A stretch of DNA of 28,987 nt, taken from an uncultured Nitrososphaeraceae archaeon. GTDB lineage: Archaea; Thermoproteota; Nitrososphaeria; Nitrososphaerales; Nitrososphaeraceae. Position 1 is the first letter of the stretch. The number at the start of each line of letters is the position of its first letter. The stretch lies in the NCBI GenBank assembly GCA_963765895.1, contig CAVXZB010000052.1:1-28987 (forward strand), read 5' to 3'. The notes beneath the pieces are model-generated. The model saw nothing but the letters and a program-made list of their open reading frames with translations. It was not told the origin of the DNA and did no database searches. Below are positions 290 through 28,987 of this stretch, piece after piece. The position numbers and the translations under genes were made by a program.

Positions 290-321
290 GTGAGTGAGTG
301 AGTGAGTGAGTGAGTGAGTGA
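286..321 (+). repeat. (GTGA)9 tetranucleotide microsatellite
   Basis: Read directly; overlaps the TGA stop of the SnoaL-like gene. Confidence 0.95.
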
Positions 322-644: not shown

Positions 645-1494
645 ATGGCTTCTTCCTCTTCATCCAATCAAAAGGTTGCCGTTGTTACGGGTAGCTCAAC
701 TGGGATAGGATACGAAACATCTCTAATCTTGGCAAGGAATGGTTTTCTTACTTATGCGACAATGAGGAATCTTAACAAAAGTGAGAGTATAGAATCGATC
801 ACTACTAAAGAAAACTTACCTATTCATATTAAACAGCTTGATGTTACAGATGATACATCTGTCAAAAATGCAGTAGAAGCAATATCGTCTGAGACAGGAC
901 GTATAGACCTCTTAGTAAATAACGCAGGATATGGACTTAACGGTGCCTTTGAGGATCTTGCAATGGATGAGATAAAAGCTCAATATGAAACTAATTTGTT
1001 TGGATTGATAAGAACAACTCAAGCAGTCCTTCCGATTATGAGAAGACAAAAATCAGGAACGATTGATAAATATTAGCTTGGCGTTGGAAGATTTGGTCTT
1101 CCTGGGAGCTCGGCTTATGTTAGCACAAAATTTGCAGTTGAAGGACTAAGCGAATCTATGTCATATGAATTGGAGCCATTTGGTATAAAAGTGGTTTTAG
1201 TGGAGCCAGGAGTTATTAAAACGAACTTTGTAGACGGCATGGTCATTGCAAGAAAATCTCAAGATTCAAAATCTCCATATTCTCAAATAATCCAGAAAAT
1301 GGTTACTGGCTTGGAGGAAATGATGAAAAATGGATTTCTCCTATCTTGTAGCAAAGATAGTGCTTAACCAGCTACAAATGAAAATCCTAGCCTCAGGTAT
1401 TTAGCTGGAAATGATGTAGAACAATTGTTGGGGAATAAAAGGAACATGTCTGATGAGAGTTTTATAAAATGATGAGCAAAATCTGATGACGTAG
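645..1494 (+). CDS. Short-chain dehydrogenase/reductase, frameshifted mirror copy of 17375..18229
   Basis: TGSSTGIG and NNAG motifs. Split by indels at about 1063-1079, 1335-1343, 1367 and 1455-1475 relative to the intact copy. Confidence 0.85.
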
Positions 1495-1560
1495 AGCATT
1501 GTCCAAGTATACGTAGATATTACTCCATACGTGAGATGCCTCATTTTAGAAATATTTATA

Positions 1561-1681
1561 ATTTGGCGCGCCGCACATCTGTATTAGAAGATATTTTTCC
1601 GATATACATATAAGACATGTCAAAATCCTGACATTGTCCGATGTGTTAAAACTTTGGCTATAGACTGAATTAATATGCTGG
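1561..1681 (-). repeat. GGCGCGCC-ended dispersed repeat, mirror of copy A (17188..17308)
   Basis: TTTGGCGCGCC at 1562-1572; part of the inverted arm. Confidence 0.7.
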
Positions 1682-1792
1682 TCCACGTCAGCTAGACGCT
1701 ACTATATATAGATATCAATTTGTAGAGTCATCAATTCTGTTATGGAATTAGCATCTAGGCGTGAAGATTTACTTATCCATGGAATCAGTTAG

Positions 1793-2144
1793 TCATGAGT
1801 AACCTTGGAATTTTAATAACTCATTTATGCTTGTCAGGATCTTTGTGCTTTACATGATGCTCGACAGATTCTAGATGTACATTCTGTACGTCAGGATCCA
1901 GCCTGCAGTAATAACAATCCTGCTTTAAAGCAATACTAGGACAGCATGGACTCTGGTCTAAATCGTGTTCTGGAAGTGGCGTATATGGCGCGTTTGGATC
2001 TTTGTAGAAAAAATCGGTTACAGAGATGACTTTGGCTGTCTCGTATCCTGTACCTACTGATGAAACGCCATCTAACGGGGGATATGAGTTTGTGCGCGCC
2101 TCCGCTTCACCGCCATGTTTTCCATTAGTAGTCCTAGGAATTTG
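1793..2144 (-). pseudogene. Cys/His-rich C-terminal domain remnant, mirror of 16725..17076
   Basis: Reverse complement of the start-less reading frame at 16725..17076. Confidence 0.55.
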
Positions 2145-2152
2145 CTAACAAC

Positions 2153-3430
2153 TTAGTGTCTTTGCGAAGATAAAATGGTAGATTCTTTAAAGTCTCTGAC
2201 TGGATCTGAAAGCCAGCCAAAAAGGCCTTCCAGAACACTCTGTTGTATTGGTCCGATACCAGTCGACCATTGAGACGAGGGATAAAAGTCATGTCCAAGG
2301 TTTGGATATGTTAACAATGTATGATCAGGATGTCTTACTTCAGTTAGTCTTTGTTGTAATAGAAATGCTTGCCGTATTGGGGTTTGTGAATCATTCTTTC
2401 CTTGCATTATTAAAATGGATGTGGTGGACGGAACTTTACCTATGATATCCAAATTAGGTATCGAAGAGCAAAACGATGTAATCCAAATAGGACACGGAAC
2501 TCTTAGATCGTTACACTTCTCACCTTTTTTTACAACTGACATTGATTTGAGATGGTCAATTAACTGGGGCTTAAGTTCATCATTAATACTTATGAAGGTG
2601 TCATTGTTAATATTATATTGGGGATTGAGTCGTTCGGCTGTTCCATTGGCAGTAGTAATGTTTTGAGCAAGAACTAGAGTAAGATTTCCGACCATAGAGC
2701 TGAAAACAGGATTCTTTGATGCTTCTTGTACTGATAGTAATCCATTGTGATTATGGTCTAGAACCTGCTGAGCGTAGAGTAATGGGAGCGTAACTGCCTG
2801 GGAGTCTCCTATTTTACTAAAGTTCTGGGCCACTGCCCCCATCAGTACAATTTTATCTACTATATTTGGATTGTTGATTGCAATTGCAATTCTTGGGACA
2901 ATCACTGTACCCTCGCTATGTCCAACTAGAGTTACATGGTTAGAATTAACCTCTGGTTGCTGTATTAGAACGTCTAGGGCTTTCTCTGCATCTTGTGTCA
3001 GATCGTTAGATGTTATGTTTCCCCATACATTGCTATCCAATAGTGTCATATTCGCGCCAAAACCTCTCTTGTTATACTGTAATACTGCAAAGCCTCTTTC
3101 TGAAAGATATTTAGCTATATCAAAGAACGGTCTAGCTGGCGGATAAATAATTGAGCCTGTTTTGTTATCTATACGAATATAGCCTCCAGTTTCATTCATA
3201 TCAGTGGTTCCAGAACCAGGGACAAGAAGTACACCTGGAAATGGTACTTTTCCAAAGGCTGGAAGATTTAGCTTAGCATTTGTCTTTAAACCATTACCCA
3301 AATCTATAGCTATATTTCTATGTTTAGTTGTCTGCAAGTCTGATTGAGCTTGAACTGTGAGAGCTACACCACAAAATAAGAAGCATAGAGCACAGGCAGA
3401 AAGAACTATCGCTACTATCTTTAATGACAT
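2153..3430 (-). CDS. Secreted alpha/beta-fold serine hydrolase (intact copy)
   Basis: Signal peptide MSLKIVAIVLSACALCFLFCGVALTVQA; PGSG motif, nucleophile GHSEG, QGKNDSQTP (Asp) and LGH (His). Start placed at the second ATG of ORF 2153..3445. Confidence 0.85.
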   Translation of the reverse strand: MSLKIVAIVLSACALCFLFCGVALTVQAQSDLQTTKHRNIAIDLGNGLKTNAKLNLPAFGKVPFPGVLLVPGSGTTDMNETGGYIRIDNKTGSIIYPPARPFFDIAKYLSERGFAVLQYNKRGFGANMTLLDSNVWGNITSNDLTQDAEKALDVLIQQPEVNSNHVTLVGHSEGTVIVPRIAIAINNPNIVDKIVLMGAVAQNFSKIGDSQAVTLPLLYAQQVLDHNHNGLLSVQEASKNPVFSSMVGNLTLVLAQNITTANGTAERLNPQYNINNDTFISINDELKPQLIDHLKSMSVVKKGEKCNDLRVPCPIWITSFCSSIPNLDIIGKVPSTTSILIMQGKNDSQTPIRQAFLLQQRLTEVRHPDHTLLTYPNLGHDFYPSSQWSTGIGPIQQSVLEGLFGWLSDPVRDFKESTILSSQRH

Positions 3431-3691
3431 CTTTGACCATCCCATCGTTGCATTACCCTAACTACCTGTCCAGACTTTGAATTTATCGTTCCTGGAATCC
3501 TAACCAAACATGAGTTTATGGATGGTCTATGTTGCCGATCTCCTTTTTTATTCGTAAGAAAATCCTCTGCAAATTGCATGAATTTACTGGTGAGGTCTCT
3601 TCCATTAGGATCTATAAACTTTGCAAACACTTCTTCCTCTTCTAAGATAAATCCTGTCACCGGTGGTAAATATGATAGCCGTTGCCAGTCC
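3431..3691 (-). pseudogene. Internal fragment of an AEP primase-like gene (mirror of 15177..15437)
   Basis: Encodes TGNGYHIY...RIPGTINSK...RWDGQR; truncated at the arm boundary. Confidence 0.65.
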
Positions 3692-13097: not shown

Positions 13098-13120
13098 TAT
13101 TTAGATATTTAGATATTTAG
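13098..13120. repeat. Three tandem copies of TATTTAG(A) abutting the IS left end
   Basis: tatttaga tatttaga tatttag read directly. Confidence 0.85.
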
Positions 13121-14070
13121 GGCTGTGTAGAAACCATCTCATACAGTCAAAGCTTTGTAAGAGTATAATACCAATAGTCTATTGAAAGAATCAATGTACG
13201 TCAGACTTGCAGGTACTATGTTCCGTGTTTTGAAGCATGCAAGGATTCCTCTATTTTCTAACAGGAAAAGTAATCACATATTTACAATATGGCAGCACAT
13301 AGTTCTAGTTGCTATACGACAGTATGAAGGTAAGAGTTATAGGATGTTTGTCGAGTGGTTAGTCGAGGCATATTACCTTAGATCGTACCTACGATTGTCA
13401 CGTATTCCTCATTTTACAACATTGCAAAAGTTTACAGACAGAATTAGCAATTCACTGCTTGAGAAGATAATTTCGTCATTCATTGTAATTAGCTGTACGA
13501 AGCATATCTTTGTAGGAATAGATTCAACAGGATTTAAAATAACTCATGCTTCACAGTATTATGATGAACGAATAGAAGCAAGAAGAAAATATGCGAAATT
13601 ATCTATTAGAGCCGATGTATTACAACAGATTATCTGCAACATAAGGATAAGACGAGCTCCTACAAGACATGATAATGTAGATTTCAAGCCAATCATAACA
13701 AGGACGTCAAATATCCCTTCCACTATCCGTAGTTACAGCTGATAAGGGATATGATAATGAAGATAATCATCAGTTGGTAAGAGAAACCTTGCATGCATTC
13801 AGTGTTATTCCAGACTCGATATGAACATGTACCGATATGGAGAACACATGGCAGATATAGAAAGCAGATGAAACGTGGATATAACGAACTATTGTACAAT
13901 CAACGAAACAAGGATGAGACCATAATGTCTGTCATAAAACGACTATTTGGAGAATATATTTCTTCAAGGCTAGTAAAAACACAGAACAGGGAACTATCAT
14001 TCAGATGCATAGCCTATAACATGCACAGGCTAACGAATATTGTCATTTTTGTGATGATTTCTACATGGCC
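13121..14070 (+). mobile_element. IS5/IS4-like insertion sequence, ~950 bp
   Basis: Imperfect terminal inverted repeats GGCTGTGTAGAAACCATCTC (13121-13140) and revcomp of 14051-14070, GGCCATGTAGAAATCATCAC (16/20 match), enclose a DDE transposase. Confidence 0.88.
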
Positions 14071-14080
14071 GTTATTTTAG
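13182..14080 (+). CDS. DDE transposase (IS5-family-like), two apparent +1 frameshifts (~13716, ~13814)
   Basis: IPHFTTLQKF, IDSTGF, ADKGYD (in the intervening frame) and RNKDET. The stop codon lies just outside the right TIR. Confidence 0.88.
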
Positions 14081-14540: not shown

Positions 14541-14829
14541 AAACCTGAAAATAATGCATGCGCATCTTTTGGTAGCATTCTAACAGATAATCACTACAAG
14601 GACGGAATTTTTCATTCAGCTATAGTGTCCCTAGAATCTGGACTGAAAGAAATTTATCCCCTTAGTAGTATGCTTTTTAGTTCTAGTAATTCAGGCATAT
14701 AGATAAAATGAAACTTAATCAGATTAATATTAGTCGTAATGATTATAATAAACACTGGGCCAGCTTCGAAACGAAAATAATGATATACAAAGGGGTAGTT
14801 TTTCTTTCACCCCCTCACAGAAAGAAATT

Positions 14830-15437
14830 TTCCCCCTTACTAGTCAGGAATTAGAGCAGAACCTGTACTTCATAATATCACATTTACAGGAGCCCATTTT
14901 CCCAAGAAATATAATGACCAAAGGCTCTTGGTTACCAGAAAGAAGTGTTCAACATAAAGGAAGTCCTTGAATATTTTAGGCATCAAACTATGAGGATTGT
15001 AGAATCAATGCTTATCCTTCCTTTACTAAATACGATGGCATTAATAGAACTCCACCAACTTTTCTAATTATAGATATAGATCTAAAGGACTTTGTTTCGA
15101 AAGATAAACTTGATAGGGCGTTGATCAGAATCTTAGAAAATTAAAACTAGTATACACTGCCATCCTACAGTATTATGGACTGGCAACGGCTATCATATTT
15201 ACCACCGGTGACAGGATTTATCTTAGAAGAGGAAGAAGTGTTTGCAAAGTTTATAGATCCTAATGGAAGAGACCTCACCAGTAAATTCATGCAATTTGCA
15301 GAGGATTTTCTTACGAATAAAAAAGGAGATCGGCAACATAGACCATCCATAAACTCATGTTTGGTTAGGATTCCAGGAACGATAAATTCAAAGTCTGGAC
15401 AGGTAGTTAGGGTAATGCAACGATGGGATGGTCAAAG
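14830..15437 (+). pseudogene. Archaeo-eukaryotic primase (AEP/prim-pol)-like gene, frameshifted and 3'-truncated
   Basis: Joined frames read FIISHLQEPIFPR...EDCRINAYP...FLIIDID (motif I, 15073-15081), HPTVLWTGNGYH (motif II, 15161-15196) and LVRIPGTINSK. Ends at RWDGQR where the hydrolase begins. Confidence 0.72.
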
Positions 15438-16716
15438 ATGTCATTAAAGATAGTAGCGATAGTTCTTTCTGCCTGTGCTCTATGCTTCTTATTTTGTGGT
15501 GTAGCTCTCACAGTTCAAGCTCAATCAGACTTGCAGACAACTAAACATAGAAATATAGCTATAGATTTGGGTAATGGTTTAAAGACAAATGCTAGGCTAA
15601 ATCTTCCAGCCTTTGGAAAAGTCACCATTTCCAGGTGTACTTCTTGTCCCTGGTTCTGGAACCACTGATATGAATGAAACTGGAGGCTATATTCGTATAG
15701 ATAACAAAACAGGCTCAATTATTTATCCGCCAGCTAGACCGTTCTTTGATATAGCTAAATATCTTTCAGAAAGAGGCTTTGCAGTATTACAGTATAACAA
15801 GAGAGGTTTTGGCGCGAATATGACACTATTGGATAGCAATGTATGGGGAAACATAACATCTAACAATCTGACACAAGATGCAGAGAAAGCCCTAGACGTT
15901 CTAATACAGCAACCAGAGGTTAATTCTAACCATGTAACTCTAGTTGGACATAGCGAGGGTACAGTGATTGTCCCAAGAATTGCAATTGCAATCAACAATC
16001 CAAATATAGTAGATAAAATTGTACTGATGGGGGCAGTGGCCCAGAACTTTAGTAAAATAGGAGACTCCCAGGCAGTTACGCTCCCATTACTCTACGCTCA
16101 GCAGGTTCTAGACCATAATCACAATGGATTACTATCAGTACAAGAAGCATCAAAGAATCCTGTTTTCAGCTCTATGGTCGGAAATCTTACTCTAGTTCTT
16201 GCTCAAAACATTACTACTGCCAATGGAACAGCCGAACGACTCAATCCCCAATATAATATTAACAATGACACCTTCATAAGTATTAATGATGAACTTAAGC
16301 CCCAGTTAATTGACCATCTCAAATCAATGTCAGTTGTAAAAAAAGGTGAGAAGTGTAACGATCTAAGAGTTCCGTGTCCTATTTGGATTACATCGTTTTG
16401 CTCTTCGATACCTAATTTGGATATCATAGGTAAAGTTCCGTCCACCACATCCATTTTAATAATGCAAGGAAAGAATGATTCACAAACCCCAATACGGCAA
16501 GCATTTCTATTACAACAAAGACTAACTGAAGTAAGACATCCTGATCATACATTGTTAACATATCCAAACCTTGGACATGACTTTTATCCCTCGTCTCAAT
16601 GGTCGACTGGTATCGGACCAATACAACAGAGTGTTCTGGAAGGCCTTTTTGGCTGGCTTTCAGATCCAGTCAGAGACTTTAAAGAATCTACCATTTTATC
16701 TTCGCAAAGACACTAA
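15438..16716 (+). CDS. Secreted alpha/beta-fold serine hydrolase, one extra base at ~15623
   Basis: Same protein as 2153..3430; GTCAC here versus GTAC in the intact copy. Confidence 0.85.
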
Positions 16717-16724
16717 GTTGTTAG

Positions 16725-17076
16725 CAAATTCCTAGGACTACTAATGGAAAACATGGCGGTGAAGCGGAGGCGCGCACAAACTCATATCCCCCGTTAGATG
16801 GCGTTTCATCAGTAGGTACAGGATACGAGACAGCCAAAGTCATCTCTGTAACCGATTTTTTCTACAAAGATCCAAACGCGCCATATACGCCACTTCCAGA
16901 ACACGATTTAGACCAGAGTCCATGCTGTCCTAGTATTGCTTTAAAGCAGGATTGTTATTACTGCAGGCTGCATCCTGACGTACAGAATGTACATCTAGAA
17001 TCTGTCGAGCATCATGTAAAGCACAAAGATCCTGACAAGCATAAATGAGTTATTAAAATTCCAAGGTTACTCATGA
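16725..17076 (+). pseudogene. Start-less remnant with a Cys/His-rich (putative Zn-binding) C-terminal domain
   Basis: Open frame 16725..17048, absent from the ORF track: ...YTPLPEHDLDQSPC...YYCRLHPDVQNVHLESVEHHVKHKDPDKHK, continuing NELLK after a shift. Resembles a domain I recall from Nitrososphaeraceae hypothetical proteins. Confidence 0.55.
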
Positions 17077-17187
17077 CTAACTGATTCCATGGATAAGTAA
17101 ATCTTCACGCCTAGATGCTAATTCCATAACAGAATTGATGACTCTACAAATTGATATCTATATATAGTAGCGTCTAGCTGACGTGGA

Positions 17188-17308
17188 CCAGCATATTAAT
17201 TCAGTCTATAGCCAAAGTTTTAACACATCGGACAATGTCAGGATTTTGACATGTCCTATATGTATATCGGAAAAATATCTTCTAATACAGATGTGCGGCG
17301 CGCCAAAT
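17188..17308 (+). repeat. Dispersed non-coding repeat, copy A (short form)
   Basis: ccagcatattaattcagt...tttaacacatcggaca...cggaaa...GGCGCGCCAAAT aligns with copies B and C. Confidence 0.7.
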
Positions 17309-17374
17309 TATAAATATTTCTAAAATGAGGCATCTCACGTATGGAGTAATATCTACGTATACTTGGACAATGCT

Positions 17375-18229
17375 CTACATCATCAGATTTTGCTTCATCA
17401 TTTTATAAAACTCTTCATCAGACATGTTCCTTTTATTCCCCAACAATTGTTCTACATCATTTCCAGCTAAATACCTGAGGCTAGGATTTTCATTTGTAGC
17501 TGCGTTAAGCACTATCTTTGCTACAAGATCAGGAGAAGATCCATTTTTCATCATTTCCTCCAAGCCAGTAACCATTTTCTGGATTATTTGAGAATATGGA
17601 GATTTTGGATCTTGAGATTTTCTTGCAATGACCATGCCGTCTACAAAGTTCGTTTTAATAACTCCTGGCTCCACTAAAACCACTTTTATACCAAATGGCT
17701 CCAATTCATATGACATAGATTCGCTTAGTCCTTCAACTGCAAATTTTGTGCTAACATAAGCCGAGCTCCCAGGAAGACCAAATCTTCCAACGCCAGAGCT
17801 AATATTTATGATCGTTCCTGATTTTTGTCTTCTCATAATCGGAAGGACTGCTTGAGTTGTTCTTATCAATCCAAACAAATTAGTTTCATATTGAGCTTTT
17901 ATCTCATCCATTGCAAGATCCTCAAAGGCACCGTTAAGTCCATATCCTGCGTTATTTACTAAGAGGTCTATACGTCCTGTCTCAGACGATATTGCTTCTA
18001 CTGCATTTTTGACAGATGTATCATCTGTAACATCAAGCTGTTTAATATGAATAGGTAAGTTTTCTTTAGTAGTGATCGATTCTATACTCTCACTTTTGTT
18101 AAGATTCCTCATTGTCGCATAAGTAAGAAAACCATTCCTTGCCAAGATTAGAGATGTTTCGTATCCTATCCCAGTTGAGCTACCCGTAACAACGGCAACC
18201 TTTTGATTGGATGAAGAGGAAGAAGCCAT
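17375..18229 (-). CDS. Classical short-chain dehydrogenase/reductase (17beta-HSD-like group)
   Basis: TGSSTGIG, NNAG, catalytic S and YVSTK, VEPG; intact 284 aa. Confidence 0.95.
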   Translation of the reverse strand: MASSSSSNQKVAVVTGSSTGIGYETSLILARNGFLTYATMRNLNKSESIESITTKENLPIHIKQLDVTDDTSVKNAVEAISSETGRIDLLVNNAGYGLNGAFEDLAMDEIKAQYETNLFGLIRTTQAVLPIMRRQKSGTIINISSGVGRFGLPGSSAYVSTKFAVEGLSESMSYELEPFGIKVVLVEPGVIKTNFVDGMVIARKSQDPKSPYSQIIQKMVTGLEEMMKNGSSPDLVAKIVLNAATNENPSLRYLAGNDVEQLLGNKRNMSDEEFYKMMKQNLMM

Positions 18230-18552
18230 TAGTATTACTACTCATTCTATGCATTATATTACTTAAGCTAGTGATTCTACAATTATCAAGTGAGACCAAA
18301 CTTGCATATTTTGCACTACCTATTATGAGTTGTTTATTCGGACATTGATTATATCCAGGCAGTATATAATTTCCGAAATGAATATGCGTGAATTTGTTCT
18401 AGTTGAGTCTTAGTCGCTTGTTGCTGACTGTCCCAGAAGATCATTACTTTCAGACTCATGATTCTCATTTCTATTCCTCTTTTCTGATGAAATCACTTTC
18501 ATCAATTAGTCTTCATATTAACCTTAGTACATGTTTAGCAATTCCTAAGTGA

Positions 18553-18684
18553 TCACTCACTCACTCACTCACTCACTCACTCACTCACTCACTCACTCAC
18601 TCACTCACTCACTCACTCACTCACTCACTCACTCACTCACTCACTCACTCACTCACTCACTCACTCACTCACTCACTCACTCAC
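18553..18684. repeat. (TCAC)33 perfect tetranucleotide microsatellite
   Basis: 132 bp counted directly; includes the stop codon of 18681..19082. Confidence 0.95.
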
Positions 18685-19082
18685 TCATTCTCATCGATCA
18701 GTTGTTGAACAAGCACTGAATCCAAGTAAGCTCGAACCTCGACAATCAAACCATCAACAAACCGTGTTATCCAGCAGAATCTTTGAGCATATGGCCGTCC
18801 ATTCAGAGCAACTGAAGTAGAAGTCATCTCTACAATAGCAGTATCAGTTGAAACGTATATGTAGTTTATCTTCATTATTACAGATCCTCCTTTTATAATC
18901 CTGGCTAAGCGCTCAAATGTATGCTTCAAAAAGTCAGCTTTACTGTTATATACACCAGCCAGCGGGTGTGTCCCCATCACCGTCCACTGTACGTCATCAG
19001 CTACGCTATCAAAAAAGACCCTTTGCCTTTCATTAGAAAGATTCTCATACAGCTTAGCGACAGAGTCAAGTGTAAGAGCCAT
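18681..19082 (-). CDS. SnoaL/NTF2-like (ketosteroid isomerase-like) protein
   Basis: ADDVQWTVMGTHPLAGVY...NGRPY...WITRF.DG.IVEVRAYLDS pattern. Confidence 0.9.
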   Translation of the reverse strand: MALTLDSVAKLYENLSNERQRVFFDSVADDVQWTVMGTHPLAGVYNSKADFLKHTFERLARIIKGGSVIMKINYIYVSTDTAIVEMTSTSVALNGRPYAQRFCWITRFVDGLIVEVRAYLDSVLVQQLIDENE

Positions 19083-19276
19083 ATATCTATCGAGAAAAAT
19101 TCGTAACTATGATATAATAATTGATATAATAATATGATGAATGCATCGCAATCCACCATATTAGATTCACGCATCCAAACGATCAATTTAACTAAAATTT
19201 AGGGACTAAAAAGCAATACAAACTCCATTAATGATTACAGGAAATTTGCAGTGTAGCATATATTGTCTCATGCTAG

Positions 19277-19478
19277 CCAACATATTTAGTTCTGTTAATA
19301 CCCAATATGTTTAACACCTCGGACATCTAGTATAATTATCCCGGAAATAGTGTTATGATTGGATATGCGGCATGCCAGATTATAAACACTATCAAAAATG
19401 GTGCATCAGGTATAGACGGGAGTTTTCGTAGACGGATATACAGTATGTATGTATGTCTATCATGAGGCGCGCACATTA
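19277..19478 (+). repeat. Dispersed non-coding repeat, copy B
   Basis: Colinear similarity with copy C over ~200 bp (tataattatc.cggaaa, tatcaaaaatg.tgc, tagac, atgaggcgcgc). Confidence 0.8.
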
Positions 19479-19498
19479 TACCTCTAGTTTGAATTATA

Positions 19499-19772
19499 TT
19501 AAGTGCAATTACACTCGGATACTTTAGTAATCAATTCATTAATCATCTTTTCATGCTGCAATACTAAGAGCATAGATAATGATTCACCGGGATAGTTTTC
19601 GCCTTTGGAGTTAACAGCTCTGATGTAGTCTTTATTTTGTCCACATTCAGAAAGCATCTTACCAAATAGAAGTGCATTTTCTTCTCAGAGCATATTCAAA
19701 GTCTTTCTGTGATTTGATCTCTTTAGCTAGGATACCAACGTTGCCATTCTCATTTTGTTCATTTTGGGACAC
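19499..19772 (-). pseudogene. Small helical protein resembling the PolB2-operon accessory family; one frameshift near 19682
   Basis: Not in the ORF track. Reads ...ILAKEIKSQKDFEYALR/EENALLFGKMLSEC...ESLSMLLVLQHEKMINELITK; family assignment from memory. Confidence 0.55.
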
Positions 19773-19861
19773 TCTATTATCTTGAACGTACATTCTTTTT
19801 AACTACAGAGCCTTTCGGGAACTGAGAACGCATAAATGGCAGTCCTAGATTCCACGGTCAC

Positions 19862-20257
19862 ATGGCTCTAGGAGATTTAGCATTCGAAGAAACTGGAAAG
19901 TTTGCAGGAATAAGGGCACTCCCCGACGGAAAGGTGGAAGCGACATATCAGGGAACTGGCAAATTGTTCGGTGTAGACTATTCATCTATCTATACCGGCG
20001 TCGCAAGCCCGCATGGAGGAACCTTGATTGCAGAGTTCAATGGAATCTGCACAACCAAAGATGGGGACACTGTTGGTGTGTGGGCTCATGGAAGGGGGCG
20101 ACCTACCGGAAGTGGCCTAAAGGCGAGCTGGCGAGGTGGAGTTATCTGGCAGGCTTCCTCGCCGCAATTTGCAAGGTTGAATAGCGTGCCAGGAGTGTGG
20201 GAGTTGGACATTGACGAAGGAGGTAACTTCCATTTGAAGGTTTGGGAATGGAAGTAG
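19862..20257 (+). CDS. Conserved hypothetical beta-rich protein, GC-richer than its flanks
   Basis: Intact 131-aa ORF ending KVWEWK; pyrimidine-rich tract downstream. Confidence 0.8.
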   Translation: MALGDLAFEETGKFAGIRALPDGKVEATYQGTGKLFGVDYSSIYTGVASPHGGTLIAEFNGICTTKDGDTVGVWAHGRGRPTGSGLKASWRGGVIWQASSPQFARLNSVPGVWELDIDEGGNFHLKVWEWK

Positions 20258-20506
20258 GGTTCCCGACACGAAGCTTAGCTAGCCGTTTCCTCTTCTCTCA
20301 TTTTCTTTCTTGTAGGAGGCGGACATTCCATTAGTAATTGCTGCCACCATAATAATTACCATTGTTACACTACACTTGTGACAAACCTGGTCCACTCAAA
20401 CGTCCACTCTGTCCACTCGTATAAATGAACTGAAGTCCATAACCTCTAATAATTCTTAATAGAAAATAGTTGGGAGCAATTTCCTTTGGTATTTCTTATT
20501 CTCTGC

Positions 20507-20998
20507 CTAAGCTGATACCACCATCTTCTTTTTACGTCGACGCTCCTCTACACTCTTTTCATATTGAATCTGCTGTCGTTCCCGCTTTTGGCCTGTATAC
20601 TCTTCATGTTTTTGACTTTTTTCTATAAAAGTAGCATCTTTATTGAGACGTTTTTCAGTTTCTTCTTTTTCCAAAATATTTTTTGGTTCTGACGGAGAAT
20701 TGTCAACGTAGTGTTTGTAACGCCTTTCGACCTCGTAATTATTCCCCTGAAGCACCTTTTCTATTGTATTATCCAGAGATTTCTTAATTCGTTCTTCGAG
20801 CTTGTCTGTTTCAAGGCATTGCGGATAAGTAGCTAGCAAGTATTCAAATTGTTTCATGTATTCTATTACTTTATCACGATATTCTTCCTTGGTAGGCTTG
20901 TGATTTTTTGTTATCTTGAACCATGTGGTTGCACATTGAGCAGGATACGCTTTCGCGAGTTCTTCAATTACACGATCCATTTCAAAATAGTCTAGCAT
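20507..20998 (-). CDS. Hypothetical protein, helical with charged C-terminal tail
   Basis: 163-aa ORF with plausible composition; N-terminal part resembles thaumarchaeal hypothetical proteins. Confidence 0.7.
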   Translation of the reverse strand: MLDYFEMDRVIEELAKAYPAQCATTWFKITKNHKPTKEEYRDKVIEYMKQFEYLLATYPQCLETDKLEERIKKSLDNTIEKVLQGNNYEVERRYKHYVDNSPSEPKNILEKEETEKRLNKDATFIEKSQKHEEYTGQKRERQQIQYEKSVEERRRKKKMVVSA

Positions 20999-21750
20999 AC
21001 AAATTAGCTCCTACCTGAAAGGATTAGAAATATATCTTTGTTTTGCAATCATGGTTATAGCTGCTAACTTGAAGCTGATATTATCGTCTTGTAAAGGCTG
21101 TTTATTACATTCCATTAATTACCATATGAGGATTACATGTTTATAATTTAATCTATTGTTTATTTGTTTGTTCTAATTGGATATCTGAATAATTATTATA
21201 AAAAGTATTATATTTATGAAGATATTCAAATTACTGATTCAGTCTTAAACGAGTCAGGTTTTAAAGTTCTCGTTATGGCGATTTTGGTTATCGATTCCGC
21301 GGGACAGTATGATGTTTTACAGGTTCATGATCTTTTTGTGAAGATAACGAAGGATGATATCTTCTGATTGGTAGTTTATCATAAAGGTCATAATGCGATA
21401 TCTGAATGCGTCTTAGGTCTCCTATTCTAACGCTGGCTAGATTAGCTAATAACTGCATAGCTTCAAGATATCCATAATATATAAGCGGCACGATGTTAAA
21501 ATAATACAAAGATGGGACAGTCAAAGGCCTGCAATAAACTATCTATTGCGCGATTTTAGAAGATGGCTCATAAATAAAAAGTAATGCAGAGATTGACTAA
21601 TGGTAGAAGGGGGGCGCGCAGATCACGGATATGATGTGACTCAATATCCTGGATGGTGTCCGGGTTTTAAAAGTGGGTACGCCGCTGAGTGGGCAATTCT
21701 AGAGGTCGGTAAATAAGTAGCACTAGCTCGCTACTGTCTGAGCTTCTACA

Positions 21751-22008
21751 TCAGCGACGGCTTTTACTACAGGGTCGCTGCGTAGCACCTGATACACTGG
21801 GTTTATTAAGGTAATAATTCTTAATATCGTCTTTATAGTCTTTGGCGTTTTTGTCTGATTTCTCCACGAGGCAGGTTGTTGCGTCTCCCTCGCTAGCAGT
21901 AGTAGGGGCCACGTCCTTAATAGGTTTATTGAGCGCCTTCGCGACAGGGGGTATGGCATTTAAAGCCTGCACTAATTGGTTAAATACAGACTCAGGTCTT
22001 CCTTGCAT
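21751..22008 (-). CDS. Hypothetical protein or gene fragment
   Basis: 85-aa ORF only; no recognised motif. Confidence 0.3.
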   Translation of the reverse strand: MQGRPESVFNQLVQALNAIPPVAKALNKPIKDVAPTTASEGDATTCLVEKSDKNAKDYKDDIKNYYLNKPSVSGATQRPCSKSRR

Positions 22009-22347
22009 ATCTTAACCAATGTCTTTAAGTCTAAATCACTGTAGTGCACACGTCCATACCACAAATATATCTAAAAATTGGTGGATAGAAAGACTATTGC
22101 AATTGTAACGAATTTGAAAAGGCAGTTGACTATAATGATATTCGATATTATCGACCTGAGGACGATAGGTTTAACGCAGTAAAAAAGCAGGTTGGTACCT
22201 ACATTCTTTGAGACATCAGCGTCCCACTGCTAGTCTGGAGCCTTTCAAGTATAGTCCATGGTGTACAAAGAAACTAAAACAACTAAAGAGTGAATAATTA
22301 TCCATACCACTTATATCGACCATAGCCCTTAAAATTATACACGAATA

Positions 22348-22551
22348 ATGCAGCCATACCATATGCTATTTAAGAAGGCCGAAGAGGGAGGCTTTACAGG
22401 AAAGTGCTTAGAGTTACCTGGAGCCATTTCTGAGGGAGAAACCATGGAAGAACTTAGAGCGAACATGATAGAAGCAATCTTGTTAGTCCAAGAGTCTATC
22501 AAGGAAGAGGCAGAACTAAGGCATGAGCAGATAACCGAAGTAATTGTCTAA
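22348..22551 (+). CDS. hicB: HicB-family antitoxin (short form)
   Basis: EEGGF...C.ELPGAISEGET.EE...N..EAI.L signature. Confidence 0.9.
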   Translation: MQPYHMLFKKAEEGGFTGKCLELPGAISEGETMEELRANMIEAILLVQESIKEEAELRHEQITEVIV

Positions 22552-22574
22552 CAAAGTAATTATTGACTGACTAA

Positions 22575-22791
22575 TTGAGTCTACGAAATCATAACTGGCG
22601 TGAGGTAGTTAGGGTTCAAAGTCGTCATGGTTTTGATATGGAAAGGCAGAGTGGTAGCCATATCCTACTAAAACACGTAGATGGAAGAAGGATAACGGTG
22701 ACCAAAACACGACACACTAAAACAGGGTACGTTAAGGGCTATTCTTGACCAGGCTGATATTTCAAGAGAGCAGTTTCTTAGCGAACTGTAG
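22575..22791 (+). CDS. hicA: HicA-family mRNA interferase toxin, one apparent frameshift near 22700
   Basis: Not in the ORF track. From TTG: ...HGFDMERQSGSHILLKHVDGRRITV/PKHDTLKQGTLRAILDQADISREQFL. Confidence 0.88.
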
Positions 22792-23036
22792 CGTAGAACT
22801 AGGTTCAGTGTCGCAGATGGCACATGCGGTGTTTACAACGAACTAACTGACACTATTATTCCTTTTCTATATTTTTTATGTTAAAGAGGCTTTACCTCCA
22901 GTAAGTAGGCGTTATTACGTTATTGCTGGATTGTAATCCGCATCTGGCAAGTTCTCGTCACTAAGATAACCAAATAATGGAACAAGCCATAATTTGTGTC
23001 CAGTTAATTATATATTTTCCTTAGGGTATGTTACCA

Positions 23037-23239
23037 ATGAATAAAATATTTTATGCAGTAGGCTTGGCTTTGCTAATTGTAGGAACTGCCGCAGCGACTA
23101 CAATCTTGACAATTCAGCCAGCGCAGGCACAGCACCATAAATGTAGCTTGCCGAACGGGGACCATTTCCAGGCCAAGGAGACCAAGGTTGTCCCCCGGGC
23201 TTAATTGATAACCCAGGCAGCGAACACGCAGGCAACTAA
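23037..23239 (+). CDS. Small secreted peptide (signal peptide ending AQA); probable 1-nt slip in GGGG 23157-23160
   Basis: MNKIFYAVGLALLIVGTAAATTILTIQPAQA-QHHKCSLPNG. As read it stops at 23204; the shifted frame ends at 23239, directly before a T-tract. Confidence 0.6.
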
Positions 23240-23260
23240 CTTTTTTTTATTTTTATTTAT
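23240..23260 (+). terminator. Oligo-T archaeal terminator-like tract
   Basis: cttttttttatttttatttat immediately after TAA 23237-23239. Confidence 0.55.
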
Positions 23261-23728
23261 AAACTAAACAAAATCGCATATTTTTCATTTATATAGTAAA
23301 AAAAATCTCTGGTGATTTCACGAGGGAATTTATGAACTCCTTTTTAGTTTCTTAGTACACCGCGGACAGAACAGAAAGGGCGCCAACGACACTATAGGCC
23401 TATCAAATTGTGCATCATTGCATATACCAACCGTCTTTTGTTATAGCGTTATAGGAATCCTCCTTAGCCTTGTAGTAACAGATATATCATATTCCACGCT
23501 TTTTTTAATTTTGCGACAACAATATCCTCCAGCCAATATAGTCATTACGAATTATCTATGACGTTTTTGCTGCCACTGCCATCGCTCTCGCTGTTATTGC
23601 TTTTCATTTTTTTAGTTTTGTTATGCGTATAGACAATAGTCCAGATAGTTGTTACAAACTACGGCAACATTATCAGTATTGCCGCTACGGGTGTAACTTC
23701 AGTTGGAACGACTACGACCATGATTTAA

Positions 23729-23893
23729 TTATCTCTCTTCAGTAACTTCTCCTTCTTCAACAATGAGGTTTGTTATCTCTGAACCATCGACATGTCTTAC
23801 TATGATATTGTATAAGTGGTCCATGCCTTGATCCCTATTCTCGCACTCGAAAGTTCCAGATATCTTGAAACTATAACGCTTTCTTTCTGTCAT
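23729..23893 (-). CDS. Small acidic hypothetical protein (54 aa)
   Basis: MTERKRYSFKISGTFECENRDQGMDHLYNIIVRHVDGSEITNLIVEEGEVTEER, read manually. Confidence 0.45.
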   Translation of the reverse strand: MTERKRYSFKISGTFECENRDQGMDHLYNIIVRHVDGSEITNLIVEEGEVTEER

Positions 23894-24255
23894 TGAATTC
23901 CACGTCTCAAGTAACTAATCATTTATCCTTTTTTATCTCATCCGTGGCGTGCTGAAAGATTTTAGCCATTGATGTATTACTACTACTACTGCTCGCCGTT
24001 ACTAGTTGGGGGGGTGTGTCGTAAATGTATCATTTCCAAGTGCCTTCACATTTACAAAGCGAGGCAAGTGAGGCAGATCCTGCCAGTCCTATTGTAACTA
24101 CAAGGATAGTCGCCAGAATAACGATGTCATTTCTCTCTTTACCTCATATCACTAGCATAAATGGATACCTTAAGATTCCTAATGTGTTGTTTAGACCGTG
24201 AGTCGGCGTTTTTATACGACCTTGCGCCTTTACTCATTAAAGTAGAGCCCCTTAA

Positions 24256-24543
24256 TTAGGTCAAATTTGATTCATACACCCTTGGGCCCCAGAAGATATA
24301 GCAATAAGAGGCTAGATGATTTGGATAACAAGTAATTATATGAATAAAGTCCTTTTTTTGATGATTGGACGTTCTTTTTGCTAATGGTGCTTCTTGGTAA
24401 ACACTTGTTGTAGGTGGATTAGGTCTTTTGCAGTTCAGTAACTGATCGATTGTCAAGATTTGGATCTTTGGATACTTGCGTTTCCAGACAGATGATGCAT
24501 AACGATCTGTTATTTTAGGTTCCTTTATCATTTCACTTGTCAT
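24256..24543 (-). pseudogene. C-terminal remnant of a DNA methyltransferase/restriction-endonuclease fusion
   Basis: T..MIKE....Y...W.RKYPKIQILTIDQLL..KRP matches the recalled C-terminus of MTase-Mrr-like fusions; no catalytic part present. Confidence 0.6.
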
Positions 24544-24660
24544 CTCTTATCTGTGCTTCTCTATGATTGATCCCATGATTGATGACGTTCCATTGGTTGC
24601 CTATCCTATTCCATTAAATTAATTAGAACCTAATATAGTATATAGATAATCAAGAAGCAT

Positions 24661-24897
24661 CTAGTGTGAGCGATAATGATGATGGTTGTCGCTAGTTCTC
24701 CTCTTATCAAAAGAAGCAACATTCCGTGGCGGAGGAGGACTATCATTCTCATGCCCTGAATGTGTTCTAATATGATTCCAGTAGTCTGAATTTGTGATCG
24801 CAGTTTTGCATACAGGACAATTGGCATAACCACATTTATGATGTCCTATAAAGTTTGGATGAAACGTAATGTTACATTTATCACATTTATTTTGCAT
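24661..24897 (-). CDS. Small Cys/His-rich protein with two putative zinc fingers
   Basis: CDKC-x10-HHKC and CPVC-x11-H-x3-H; His-rich tail. Confidence 0.6.
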   Translation of the reverse strand: MQNKCDKCNITFHPNFIGHHKCGYANCPVCKTAITNSDYWNHIRTHSGHENDSPPPPRNVASFDKRRTSDNHHHYRSH

Positions 24898-25044
24898 GTC
24901 TATTTTATCACTTTTGTCGTTGATAGTAGTATGTGCATATCGATAATTAGGATGTATCGAACGATTGCAGTTATATCAAGCTGGATAAGACGAAGCTCGA
25001 ATTACTACATGAAGTGAGTATAGTTATAGTTAGTTCACATGCAT

Positions 25045-25110
25045 TCCGGATATACATAGACTAATCTATAATACCTCATGTATATCTCAGTCATGGGCGC
25101 ACGCCAAATA
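25045..25110 (+). repeat. Dispersed non-coding repeat, degenerate 3' part (copy D)
   Basis: cggatataca...atgtatatctcagtcatgGGCGCACGCCAAAT resembles the ends of copies B and C. Confidence 0.5.
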
Positions 25111-25329
25111 GTGTGTTCTATAGATAAGGATTGAGACTTGATGATTTTTTCCAGCTCTAAACATGAGCCACTTTATTAACCAATTTCAGCAAGTTTCAAA
25201 TTTCATAGCTGTCCCAGCTCTTGACTTGATTGACTTGAATTTGTTGTACCGACTAAAGATAGAAATAATGAAGATATTGTAAATGCTCAGGGAGTGAAAG
25301 GTATGATGGCGAAGGGATCCGAGTTATAG

Positions 25330-25494
25330 ATGGAGCTAGTCTCATCACAGTCAGTAGAAGGAGCTTCTACCATCGAAATTAGGGCATTTAGAGGAAAGAA
25401 GAATGTATTCAAAGATGATATACTTGTAAGTAATGCTGACGCACAAAGACTAATGAGATTCATCAAGGAAAACTTCTCCCTCACCTCCCCATGA
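25330..25494 (+). CDS. Small hypothetical protein or gene remnant (54 aa)
   Basis: MELVSSQSVEGASTIEIRAFRGKKNVF...; the same frame continues upstream beyond a single TAG. Confidence 0.3.
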   Translation: MELVSSQSVEGASTIEIRAFRGKKNVFKDDILVSNADAQRLMRFIKENFSLTSP

Positions 25495-25694
25495 AATTAG
25501 GCGGTTACTGAAGTTCTTCCCAGAAATCAAAAGTTTTAATCCCAATTATACGATCAAGTATAATATCAATTCTGCAAAAAGGATGGTTATACTTATCAAT
25601 TATGATACCTTAATCCGATACTCGTGGTGAACTTAACATCTGTTGACTCCTTATTGATGATATCTATAGATAGTAGTAGCTAGTCGATGCGAAT

Positions 25695-25904
25695 CAACAT
25701 ATTAATTCCGTTAATATGCAACAAGTTTAACGCATTTGACTTTTTAACATATCCGATATAATTATCTCGGAAAAAGCGTTATAACCCGATAGGTGGGATG
25801 CTAGGTTTTAACCATTATCAAAAATGCTGCCTACTAGATGTAGACTAACGTCCCAAGATGGTGATAGAATTTATATATGCCGTATATGATGAGGCGCGCC
25901 AAAT
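25695..25904 (+). repeat. Dispersed non-coding repeat, copy C (best-preserved palindromes)
   Basis: CATATTAA-N5-TTAATATG (25698-25718), TCCGATATAATTATCTCGGA (25752-25771), GGCGCGCC (25893-25900). Confidence 0.8.
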
Positions 25905-26034
25905 AATCCATTCTATGAAAAACCTTCATTATTTTCCCGTCATGTTCACGGACTAGGTCTACTACTCTCAATAAAGATGAGATTACAAGAATGGCACGTA
26001 TGCTAAACTAGTAGCAATCATACCTCGCGAAGTA

Positions 26035-26340
26035 TTACCTTAATTTTTTAACTGAACCTGATTTATGCATAATACTCTTACCTGGTTTTTGTATCTGAGG
26101 CGCTGGCTGTTGTTGAATGAGCATATCTGCCTCCTCTCTTTTCTTTCTTTCTCTAAGCTTATCCTTATACTTCAAATTTCGTGGCCTTGTTCTTAGTCTA
26201 TAGCCACAGCAAGGACACCACAATCCAACCCAGTTGATGAATATTTCACAAATTTGGCATCGCCTCTGTCCTAAAGCGTAACGGCCATAGCCAGCTGGTT
26301 TTTGTGCCTTGTGACGTATACATATGCCTTTACAAGTCAT
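26035..26340 (-). CDS. Basic Cys-rich zinc-binding protein of a thaumarchaeal family
   Basis: MTCKGIC...RY..GQRRCQICEIFI.W.G..CPCCG.RLRT.PR. Confidence 0.8.
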   Translation of the reverse strand: MTCKGICIRHKAQKPAGYGRYALGQRRCQICEIFINWVGLWCPCCGYRLRTRPRNLKYKDKLRERKKREEADMLIQQQPAPQIQKPGKSIMHKSGSVKKLR

Positions 26341-26564
26341 TTTGCAATCCTACTGACGATTAATTGACGTTTTACTGTTTACGTATTGTACTTGGCAGGA
26401 AAAGGCTAGTTGATGGAAACATATCTCATAATTTATTTTCTATATTTATCAAAATATTATTTGTTATTCTTTCTTTTAGTATAAAATGAATACATATGAG
26501 TACTGCATGTAATATTTCTTCCAAATAGTTAATATATCGTAATGTACTCTATCTACGATAAAAA

Positions 26565-27043
26565 TTGGAAGAATATGACTTTGATGAAATGTGTCTGGTT
26601 GCTCTTGACATAAGCAAAGATGTAAAGGTTTGTGGCTGTTACAGATACTAACGGGAAACTACTCGCTGGAAAACAGTGTAAGGATGGTAATATCAATAAC
26701 AGTCTAATCAAAACTAGACTTTTCCAATTATCTTCTGCAGAAGCAAAAGAGTATCGGCAACATAGTCTAAAGGCTTCAGCTACATTTTTGTCATTACAAT
26801 ACGAATTATCTTTTCTATACAAATTACTTAGCAAGTACATTGAAGAGAATAAAAGATGACATGCAACATTCAGATAGTAAAGAGCAAGATTCGGCTCATC
26901 AAGTCGGACTTGTACAAATCCATGGGTTACTAAAAATAGCTATAGCTTCGCTAACGGCTAGGAACGATAGATATCTTTGTATATATTTAGAGTCTGCCTC
27001 GTCAAATCAAGAGATAATTACAAAGATACGTAACGCTATGTAA
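26565..27043 (+). CDS. Hypothetical protein with roadblock-like N-terminus, split by two apparent frameshifts
   Basis: EYDFDEMCLVALDISKDV/RFVAVTDTNGKLLAG.../...NDRYLCIYLES joins ORFs 26632..26859 and 26840..27043. Confidence 0.5.
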
Positions 27044-27375
27044 TCTTTCCATCATACAACACGGAATAAAAAAGTTGCATAAATATTGACGAGATTTGAA
27101 GAAGACCAAGTTTATGTTCTGTGATATGTTTAGTTTGCTTATTAAAGCCTCAATACTATACCAATTAAAATAATTTCTCTGATACATTGCCATAGTAACC
27201 TCTTCAGTCTGAGTTTGCCACTCAACTATAGATACAGATGAAAAATATCACTGTTAATTGAAGATATATATAATAAATAATATGCAGATGGAATCCATAT
27301 CCTGAGACAGATAAGGCGGTACCATTCACTATAACTGAGGACTCAAAAATTGCAAATACAGAAAGAGTATCCGCA

Positions 27376-27789
27376 ATGTTGGTAATTCCTGAGAGTTGCT
27401 TTCCATATTCGGGGGTTTGGATTGGTGGTATCAAAGATGGTGATAACCATTATCATTACCGGAGTCAGATAAGCGCGACACTTGACCATATATTTCTTAT
27501 GTCGTATATTGAAAATGATGACATGACCGATACTATGAGGGAGTTTAATCTAGTGTTTTGTCCAAAAGCATGTCTAGGATTATCAAGAATTGATAGGACC
27601 AGGCGAGCACAAATGCGACGTGTGAAAATGATAGCTCAACCAGATTTAATGCGACCTTATGTATTCATGGATATTAGAGCGTCGGATGTTGCACTGTCTA
27701 ACTTAATAAATTATTCTGAGCGTATACCTGCAGAATTTATCCCAGATATAACCAAGTATTATGATACCTGTAGGAAACACTTTACGTAA
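27376..27789 (+). CDS. Hypothetical protein (frame open from 27277, so the true start may be upstream)
   Basis: 137-aa ORF; no recognised motif. Confidence 0.55.
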   Translation: MLVIPESCFPYSGVWIGGIKDGDNHYHYRSQISATLDHIFLMSYIENDDMTDTMREFNLVFCPKACLGLSRIDRTRRAQMRRVKMIAQPDLMRPYVFMDIRASDVALSNLINYSERIPAEFIPDITKYYDTCRKHFT

Positions 27790-27920
27790 ACGGATCGTGC
27801 TTGGCATGAATCACAATTTTCTGTTTTTGTGGATGGCGCACCTCCAAACGATAATCAAAGTTTTGCAAGTCCTGCTACCGGTTCGTAAACTTAAATTACT
27901 TCGCAAAGTGCTTTGAAATT

Positions 27921-28601
27921 ATGGGATATAATTCAGTTCTCAAAAACTCCTTTGAAATATATCATGCAATCTATTGTCTTCGTTCTCTAGGTCTATTTCC
28001 ACATCATGATAGAGTAAAGTCATGGGATACACATAAGATGGTTGATATAATTAAGCAATCAGACACAAGCGCTTTTGTACTAGATGTTGGATGTAATGGT
28101 TCTCCGATTTTGACCCTGCTAAGTAGACTTGGTTTCATAAACCTATATGGATGTGATTTGCTCCTAGAAGAAGGAATACCATCCACAGTCGAAATGTACA
28201 AGACATTTGATATTTCAATTCAAAATTTAGAAAAAACCGAATTTCAAAACAATACATTTGATTTCGTTACATCACTATCAGTCATCGAGCACGGTATTAA
28301 TATTCAAAACTATTTTAAAGAAATGAATAGAATATTAAAAAAAGATGGATTACTTTTGACATCGACAGACTACTGGCCTGAGAAGATACCTAATCTAATA
28401 AATACGGATGTAAATCCTAAGAATTCGCCTGATAATATATTCAGCAGAAGAGAAATAGAGGAAGACGTAATTAGCATTGCAGAACAGAACGGTTTCCTTC
28501 TTACCGAACCAATAGATTTCACGCATGGGGAAAAAGTTGTTCATTGGAATGCTACGTGCCTTGATTACACTTTCATATTCTTTGCACTAAGGAAGAATTA
28601 G
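27921..28601 (+). CDS. Class I SAM-dependent methyltransferase
   Basis: VLDVGC, YGCDL, FDFVTSLSVIEH and RILKKDGLL motifs. Confidence 0.9.
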   Translation: MGYNSVLKNSFEIYHAIYCLRSLGLFPHHDRVKSWDTHKMVDIIKQSDTSAFVLDVGCNGSPILTLLSRLGFINLYGCDLLLEEGIPSTVEMYKTFDISIQNLEKTEFQNNTFDFVTSLSVIEHGINIQNYFKEMNRILKKDGLLLTSTDYWPEKIPNLINTDVNPKNSPDNIFSRREIEEDVISIAEQNGFLLTEPIDFTHGEKVVHWNATCLDYTFIFFALRKN

Positions 28602-28765
28602 TTAGTATGTAAAGGCCTGTTACAATTACCATGCACTAGAAATTGGTAGTCGGTTAAATCTATTGTGTGTGAAGAACAGGCATAAAACGTAGTATTAGAC
28701 CCAAAGAATTTTGCAAATGCTAGCGAGACTTAAAGATTTTGTCCTACTAAATCGAGAAGAAAATT

Positions 28766-28987
28766 TTGACCCTTAGTAGTCAGGAATTAGAGCAGAACCT
28801 AAATTTCATGCTATCACATTTTCAGGAGCCCATTTTCCCAAGGAATATGATGACGGATATCTTGAATATCAGAAGGAAGTGTTCAACATAAAGGAAGTCC
28901 TCGGTACTTTAAGGCATCAAACTATGAAGATTGTAGGATCAATGCCTATCCTTCATTTACTAAATACGATGGCATTAATAGAACTCC
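28766..28987 (+). pseudogene. 5' part of a second AEP primase-like gene; diverged direct repeat of 14823..15053; runs off the window
   Basis: TTG start, then TLSSQELEQNLNFMLSHFQEPIFPR...EDCRINAYPSFTKYDGINRT with two apparent indels. Confidence 0.75.

Follow-up and report, generated by a model that had tools for sequence, protein, structure and literature searches.

What kind of element would leave several diverged, non-coding repeats, all in one orientation, among the accessory genes of an archaeal contig? The question is raised by a stretch of DNA from an uncultured Nitrososphaeraceae archaeon, here called the window, which is the entire contig C52 (28,987 bp) of a 4.9-Mb assembly with 88 contigs and 37% GC. 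An original prediction, made from the letters of the window, described three copies (A, B, and C) and one partial copy (D) of the repeat and offered three explanations: sites at which a cassette-like system for gene capture recombines, ends or origins of elements encoding an archaeo-eukaryotic primase (AEP), or a structured non-coding RNA. The second of these fits best, backed by the replication gene that adjoins many copies and by the integrase gene found at four loci. The repeat is probably a relic backbone segment of genus-specific, plasmid-like integrated AEP elements and not a stand-alone element. A conspicuous repeat would then be explained as the debris of integrative AEP elements, with no new kind of system involved.

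Repeat Copies in the Window

By blastn and nhmmer, A, B, and C share homology, and all three lie on the plus strand, which bears out their description as one co-oriented family. Copy A is a short form at 17143..17366 (nhmmer model positions 9–217, E 2.5e-21), with support also from an alignment of the copies and from a comparison of its junction with five other genomes. Copy B occupies 19253..19480 (model 36–281, E 3.1e-35) and has a degenerate 5′ block and the 3′ end TATCATGAGGCGCGCA, and copy C, at 25641..25921 (model 4–294, E 1.2e-79), is a full long form with a terminal GGCGCGCC at 25893–25900. A fifth copy, missed in the original prediction, was found by blastn and nhmmer on the minus strand at 1524..1726; it matches A at 99.5% identity and sits in an inverted segmental duplication together with SDR and hydrolase genes. 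The proposed partial copy D (25045..25110, plus strand, ending ..TCATGGGCGCACGCCAAAT) is possibly a 3′-end fragment, but it aligns to the end motif only, is not significant by the profile, and is absent from both the first and the iterated nhmmer lists.

The copies are real, but their spans are wider than the limits originally given. The repeat had been thought to start at CA(A/G)CATATT, but the conserved core opens ~50 nt earlier, at TGATATCTATAGATAGTAGCA, and homology in many copies begins ~95 nt before the core, directly after the stop codon of an upstream gene. The 3′ end of the unit is TATCATGAGGCGCGCC(C)AAAT. The GGCGCGC word that had been taken as the common end is terminal in C but internal in A, which contains the core, iteron-like repeats, an internal GGCGCGCC (17297–17304), and a TATA-like block (17308–17320), lacks the 3′ module, and breaks off at 17366, with 8 nt between this point and the stop codon of an SDR gene. 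The GGCGCGCC of A is not aligned with the terminal word of C; it aligns with an internal GGCATGCC of the consensus, just 5′ of the near-invariant TATA-like GATTATAAATATT block. The word was rightly singled out as rare, since base composition predicts 6.5 occurrences in the genome; with 61 it is enriched, and 24 of these lie in or beside repeats, which span 0.65% of the genome.

Distribution of the Repeat Family

A profile built from 11 long copies (nhmmer, E ≤ 1e-3) gave 100 matches on 33 of the genome's 88 contigs, and 124 after one iteration at E ≤ 0.01; the other 55 contigs are without any copy. Copies are 70–80% alike, and near-identical ones occur only within larger duplications or duplicate contigs (8 of the 72 matches scoring at least 60 bits are near-identical duplicates of this kind). 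They are clustered in islands: contig C25 (67 kb) has 9 copies, the first 66 kb of C48 have another 9, and C18 has 5. Adjacent copies ≤15 kb apart have the same orientation in 38 cases versus opposite orientations in 7. Contig C7 corresponds to 19325–28987 of the window at ~99.6–100% identity and starts inside copy B, which suggests an assembly break or an alternative path at the repeat.

By BLAST, many copies at 70–82% identity are present in all six of the other genomes of the genus, where short relics of the 3′ end of a replication gene are followed by the repeat in co-oriented clusters. The same method found no copy in 18 genomes of other genera of the family or in 16 genomes of families elsewhere in the order. 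When searched as a word and not as a profile, an exact 17-mer of the core occurs in 58 stretches of a species-genome collection; 27 of the 58 are in seven metagenome-assembled genome records titled Nitrososphaeraceae, Nitrososphaerales, or Thermoproteota archaeon, and each of the others is a lone match in an unrelated organism. Among viral contigs, an exact 17-mer of the core gave three stretches, which were rejected as carriers: in L061 the match lies inside a coding frame with a weak 47-nt profile match, L063 has the same weak 47-nt profile match, and L062 has no profile match. No such repeat was described in a limited look-up that covered Nitrososphaera repeats and miniature inverted-repeat transposable elements (MITEs), the available part of PMC6563490, and Rfam.

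The Replication Gene on the 5′ Side

Many copies are preceded, on the repeat's own strand, by a coding sequence ending ..CRLHPEIKNTHLESIEHHIKYKDPATHKSELLKLPKLTHN*, the stop codon of which lies ~50–100 nt before the core. Directly 5′ of copy A, at 16725..17069 on the plus strand, is a relic of its 3′ end, the zinc-finger part (..CCPSIALKQDCYYCRLHPDVQNVHLESVEHHVKHKDPDKHK*), which matches by tblastn residues 393–508 of a gene on contig C75 with 56% identity and one internal TGA; a second relic homologous to the C75 gene lies near the fifth copy, at 1800–2144 on the minus strand. On C75, the coding sequence forms the end of a 511-codon open frame with a P-loop, which comes after six co-linear frames that start at position 244. 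The longer homologues of this 511-residue part are 83 proteins of ~900–1600 residues, of which 40 have a match to Pfam Prim-Pol (PF09250); those that are named are annotated as bifunctional DNA primase/polymerase of Nitrososphaeraceae or Nitrosocosmicus, and four full-length homologues end, like the C75 gene, in a C-x2-C..H-x4-H finger after the helicase part. Because of the Prim-Pol matches and the shared C-terminal finger, the gene upstream of the repeat is identified as a PrimPol-helicase-zinc-finger (C2H2-type) replication gene.

When fragments of open reading frames (ORFs) within 4 kb of copies were clustered by homology, those resembling C75:2542-4074 had the same orientation as the repeat in 20 of 20 cases and lay upstream in 18, and those of an AEP/PriX-like cluster, so named from a weak PriX match, had the same orientation in 16 of 16 and lay upstream in 15. 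Searches of PHROGs and Pfam with pieces of the C75 gene gave no useful family, and the protein atlas gave no usable match to the zinc-finger domain. No relatives of the replication gene were found in viral contigs, and the genus's 7 genomes contain no intact replication gene with the repeat besides that of C75.

Frames of ~1400 residues at G001:C49, G006:C589, and G006:C208 have a helicase like that of C75 and a family-B polymerase motif, and Prim-Pol and PolB fusions also occur among the database homologues. At C78:61936, ARAGORN called a tRNA-Pyl ~4 kb from a replication-gene relic (23 tRNAs were called assembly-wide).

The Integrase and the Right Boundary on the 3′ Side

At loci on C60, C32, C38, and C24, a convergent tyrosine integrase-like frame on the other strand reads straight into the repeat. 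The last codons of the integrase, GCT GGC GCG CCC ATG ACT TAG (A-G-A-P-M-T-stop, preceded by V), include GGCGCGCC, and GGCGCG is present in 9 of the 36 integrase-like 3′ ends listed; part of the 61 genomic GGCGCGCC words is explained because the GC word sits in integrase 3′ ends. Integrase-like fragments near repeats have the opposite orientation in 12 of 14 cases and lie downstream in 11 of 14. The convergent gene that had been noted just 3′ of A, B, and C has a counterpart in 58 of 97 copies in which the next gene is convergent, although this is a mild bias based on crude ORF calls. In copy C itself, the minus strand is open through only 13 codons.

The right boundary of the repeat is sharp and lies 10–14 nt past the GC word. 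Across an alignment of 26 long copies, AGGCGCGC is 90–99% identical and CAAAT(A)AT 55–75%, and identity falls to background beyond those 10–14 nt. The length of the GC word varies among aligned copies (GGCGCGCC, GGCGCGCGC, GGCGCGCACC, and GGCGCGCACGCACC), in a manner that resembles sequencing error, or slippage, where a GC run occurs. Another class of integrase-like frames ends in ..GAR* on GGCGCGCGC and is followed by a different shared flank (GATTATGCTGTGAAC..), not by the repeat; its members are at C18:855-1286, C59:41369-40908, C26:1072-1329, C9:8782-8994, C3:9656-9859, and C80:8027-8206.

Internal Motifs and Folding

Two T-runs face each other within the repeat. On the plus strand, a T6 run lies ~165 nt past the stop codon of the replication gene, and on the minus strand the TATA-like block reads as a T-run (T5) ~75 nt past the integrase stop, beside a small hairpin. 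Judged from these words, the two runs are predicted to be the facing terminators of the two genes. A terminator-like hairpin and T-run is found on the minus strand at 25845–25829. A 12-bp palindrome (TATCTATAGATA) is conserved as well, and so are ACATC(C)GG, which occurs three times, and GGCNNGCC words on either side of an AT-rich stretch of 20 nt. Identity peaks in the last 77 nt of the gene (78%) and in the core (74–75%) and declines on either side.

A conserved fold was not detected. With 43 copies from the one genome, RNAalifold gave no consensus pairs, and a scan of the same alignment for Watson-Crick covarying columns gave isolated pairs without stacks. The dyads described in the original prediction are present in C and in the consensus, but across the 43 copies the two long ones pair in 73.2% of cells as compared with 71.9% in shuffles. 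As DNA, the copies fold with unremarkable energy (mean z −0.45, with 3 of 29 copies below −2), and Rfam gave nothing at the gathering score over the window and nothing inside the copies at E ≤ 1. Since the blocks are conserved and do not covary, they fit candidate binding sites in double-stranded DNA.

Two coding or guide functions were considered and rejected. In C and in the consensus, the 22 codons from the conserved AAAATG to TCATGA form an open frame, but B and several other copies have no ATG or are stopped early. A C/D-box small RNA or guide RNA in the 3′ module does not fit, in that the boxes are not conserved and the module is homologous across types and not variable.

Proposed Origin of the Repeat

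In the elements from which the repeats may derive, the segment would be a non-coding stretch of ~370 nt between convergent replication and tyrosine-integrase genes. Many such elements would have entered the same islands by head-to-tail integration and would then have been truncated from both sides, segmentally duplicated, and mixed with cargo genes and copies of insertion sequences (IS), leaving ~100–124 relic copies. In a live element, the segment would carry the facing terminators and the candidate DNA binding sites and would form the control region of the replicon, most likely an origin recognised by the zinc finger of Rep, with an att region of the integrase as the next candidate.

The divergence of the copies is consistent with descent alongside a working gene. 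In the zinc-finger codons of five intact copies, the ratio of the nonsynonymous to the synonymous proportion of differences (pN/pS) is 0.13–0.43, which indicates that the copies diverged while the replication gene was functional. The p-distance of the repeat (0.17–0.40 over model positions 15–222) is smaller than pS (0.27–0.76) in 10 of 10 pairs, and the repeat segment diverges more slowly than the synonymous sites of the adjoining gene; the pS values come from ~47 codons only, and this is the first of several points that weigh against the proposed origin.

The others concern the scarcity of the two genes and the make-up of the repeat. An adjoining convergent integrase end is present in only 3 of the 100 profile matches (four loci in a later listing) and in none of the 48 full long-form copies. 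C75 has the sole near-full-length replication gene, in seven frame pieces of which the upstream ones have no Prim-Pol match in Pfam, and the broken frames may be assembly errors and not decay. The core is represented by ~100 copies as compared with ~20 C-terminal and 2–6 N-terminal fragments of the replication gene; this over-representation, at least 5-fold relative to either gene, may reflect slower evolution, sharing among types of element, or spread of the segment by itself, and a cassette-like reading thereby retains a low probability. Upstream of the repeat at least two further contexts occur, a 55-residue ORF, itself flanked by two repeat copies, and a third flank type, and some sub-families have a different 5′ module that joins at model position ~95. 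No element with defined ends (attL/attR) could be delimited, and no intact element was found in the genus's 7 genomes. An origin-type long stem-loop was not seen in the consensus fold or in the folding energy.

A more far-reaching variant has an outside chance of being correct. Here, integration of the type seen in SSV would take place at the GC palindrome within the final integrase codons and split the integrase gene, giving co-oriented arrays, and the segment with its cargo would be shuffled cassette-like among species, with Rep and Int provided in trans by a few intact elements. A division of attP at model position ~95 was rejected: the "right-half" copies that start near that position share upstream flanks of their own, and they are therefore sub-families and not half-sites.

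Comparison with Known Elements

In lambda-type phages attP adjoins the 3′ end of int, and in SSV-type viruses the att site is inside the integrase gene. The repeat segment is similar in that it abuts the 3′ end of an integrase gene and in that many copies stop 10–14 nt past the GC word of the integrase codons. It differs in that no attL/attR pair, core identity, or attB is shown here and in that the adjacency is found in four loci only.

Two published systems are also close. Thaumarchaeota have cryptic integrated elements that encode an AEP (primpol)-superfamily 3 helicase and a tyrosine integrase, show tandem integration, and have intergenic regions and gene 3′ ends as insertion sites (Krupovic et al. 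2019, PMC6563490). The host lineage and the combination of a PrimPol-helicase gene with an integrase are shared with the elements proposed here, but nearly all of the latter are relics in which a non-coding segment outnumbers the genes, and the available part of that paper describes no conserved segment. In the Sulfolobus plasmid pRN1, the origin falls in the 166 bp that follow the prim/pol-helicase gene orf904 and is a stem-loop of 100 nt, the integrity of which is required (Berkner et al. 2014, PMC4234260). As a non-coding region directly 3′ of a prim/pol-helicase gene, the pRN1 origin is the closest precedent by position within the material available; its long stem-loop, however, has no conserved counterpart in the repeat, and the sequences are unrelated.

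The proposed origin would mean that the unusually large genomes of this uncultured Nitrososphaeraceae genus hold much decayed mobile DNA in co-oriented arrays. To our knowledge, ammonia-oxidising archaea are without genetic systems, and the conserved segment, as a candidate origin or att region, would aid the development of replicons or integration tools for them.

Alternative Explanations

An unlikely alternative that accounts for the best conserved part of the repeat is a portable promoter or small-RNA gene, in which GCCAGATTATAAATATT would serve as transcription factor B recognition element (BRE) and TATA box for a short transcript that starts ~25 nt downstream (GTCCTAKGTGTAGACTGA..) and ends near GGCGCGCC, or for an antisense RNA against the neighbouring gene. 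Plasmid counter-transcripts have been reported as antisense RNAs. No stretch of the repeat is better conserved than the TATA-like block, with at least 90% conservation at most positions in 43 copies, and it resembles the TTTATATG and TTAAATAT words that lie 30–40 nt upstream of the tRNA genes of this genome. The breakpoints among 92 non-duplicate matches concentrate at four places: 52 begin at the start of the model and 42 reach its end, 11 begin at 90–109, and 25 end at 210–229. The last group fits this reading, as it falls just past the predicted transcription start. However, TATA-like AT-rich words are common at 37% GC, the same words on the minus strand form the T-run terminator ~75 nt past the integrase stop, the 3′ module does not vary but is homologous across types, and the fold, covariation, and Rfam results give such an RNA no support.

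Assembled RNA does not bear on the choice. Metatranscriptome contigs from two runs cover the coding genes over 19100–27000 and almost nothing of B and C, apart from one 151-nt contig of depth 2 at 25881–26032; as assembled contigs cannot show absence, the result at B and C counts neither way. Two metagenome DNA contigs (from two DNA runs) join 25676–25681 to 19283, i.e., the 5′ flank of C to the body of B, but at 90% likeness they may come from other copies of the repeat.

We also consider it quite improbable that the repeats are sites recombined by an integrase in cassette-like gene capture, with single accessory genes shuffled between arrays and species. Integron attC sites are imperfect palindromes of 57–141 nt that fold as hairpins, and one integrase with attI and a promoter heads the array; archaeal integrons with attC sites exist. 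The likeness is in the co-oriented repeats between accessory genes (38 to 7), in the tyrosine recombinases near them, integrase-like genes being plentiful in the genome (21 Pfam matches and 62 high-scoring segment pairs), and in the portability of the neighbouring genes. Gene-sized modules, i.e., the SDR gene, the cysteine-rich Zn-ribbon gene, and a small-protein module, are 88–95% identical across species, with boundaries at gene ends and in differing contexts, and no synteny across species was found for the 17300–27000 stretch beyond such modules. The SDR gene, the convergent neighbour of A on the minus strand (17375..18229, from the ORF and cross-genome matches), belongs to a module that is 90–95% identical in four other species and 88% in a fifth, with other contexts in four of the five.

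The details of the same junctions argue against integron-like capture as the original prediction had it. Copy A is broken at a non-terminal point by the SDR junction, which comes 8 nt after the stop codon, and of the five other genomes four have the SDR gene without a copy of the repeat beside it; junctions fall at no fixed termini. The repeat lacks an attC-like imperfect-palindrome hairpin and a hairpin consensus, and with a unit of ~280–370 nt it is ~2–5 times longer than attC. The shortened copies are sub-families with alternative modules and not half-sites, and no single platform of integrase and attI was seen, in analyses that included no search aimed at the head of an array.

It is very unlikely that the repeat is a non-autonomous transposable element that spreads alone, whether MITE-like or dependent on mobilisation in trans. 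Such an element would account for the ~100 copies, which exceed the flanking genes in number, for the sharp right boundary, and for the many pairs of copies that are homologous over the repeat alone. Terminal inverted repeats are absent, however, as had been noted for the window: no inverted match between the two ends of the consensus is longer than 7 nt. Among flank pairs of all copies of at least 40 bits there was no empty site in this genome, and the 70–80% likeness of the copies, with near-identity confined to larger duplications and duplicate contigs, also weighs against this reading. A structured non-coding RNA or a single-stranded DNA hairpin element, for which the dyads in copy C and in the consensus speak, is highly improbable on the folding, covariation, and Rfam results given above.

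Neighbouring Modules and Other Features of the Window

The convergent neighbour of copy C is a small cysteine-rich gene on the minus strand (26035..26340, from the ORF), and the module from 25995 on is 91–93% identical elsewhere. A module of ~300 nt at 19509–19812, 30 nt past copy B, encodes a small minus-strand protein and has dozens of copies genus-wide at ~80% identity.

The inverted segmental duplication relates 1–3445 of the window to 15613–18303 with 93–99% identity and includes the SDR gene, an alpha/beta-hydrolase-like gene, and the repeat; the SDR copy at 645–1076 is shortened. A (CTCA)n run of ~34 units at 18553–18690 and its complement, (GAGT)n, at 280–323 are both within the inverted duplication. 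An IS-like segment at 13114–14077 has up to 75 genomic copies and contains an ORF with a weak match to the DUF772 transposase family. Two segments at 14642–15131 and 28753–28987 form a second repeat family; they are 87–89% identical to each other and have up to 14 copies in the genome.

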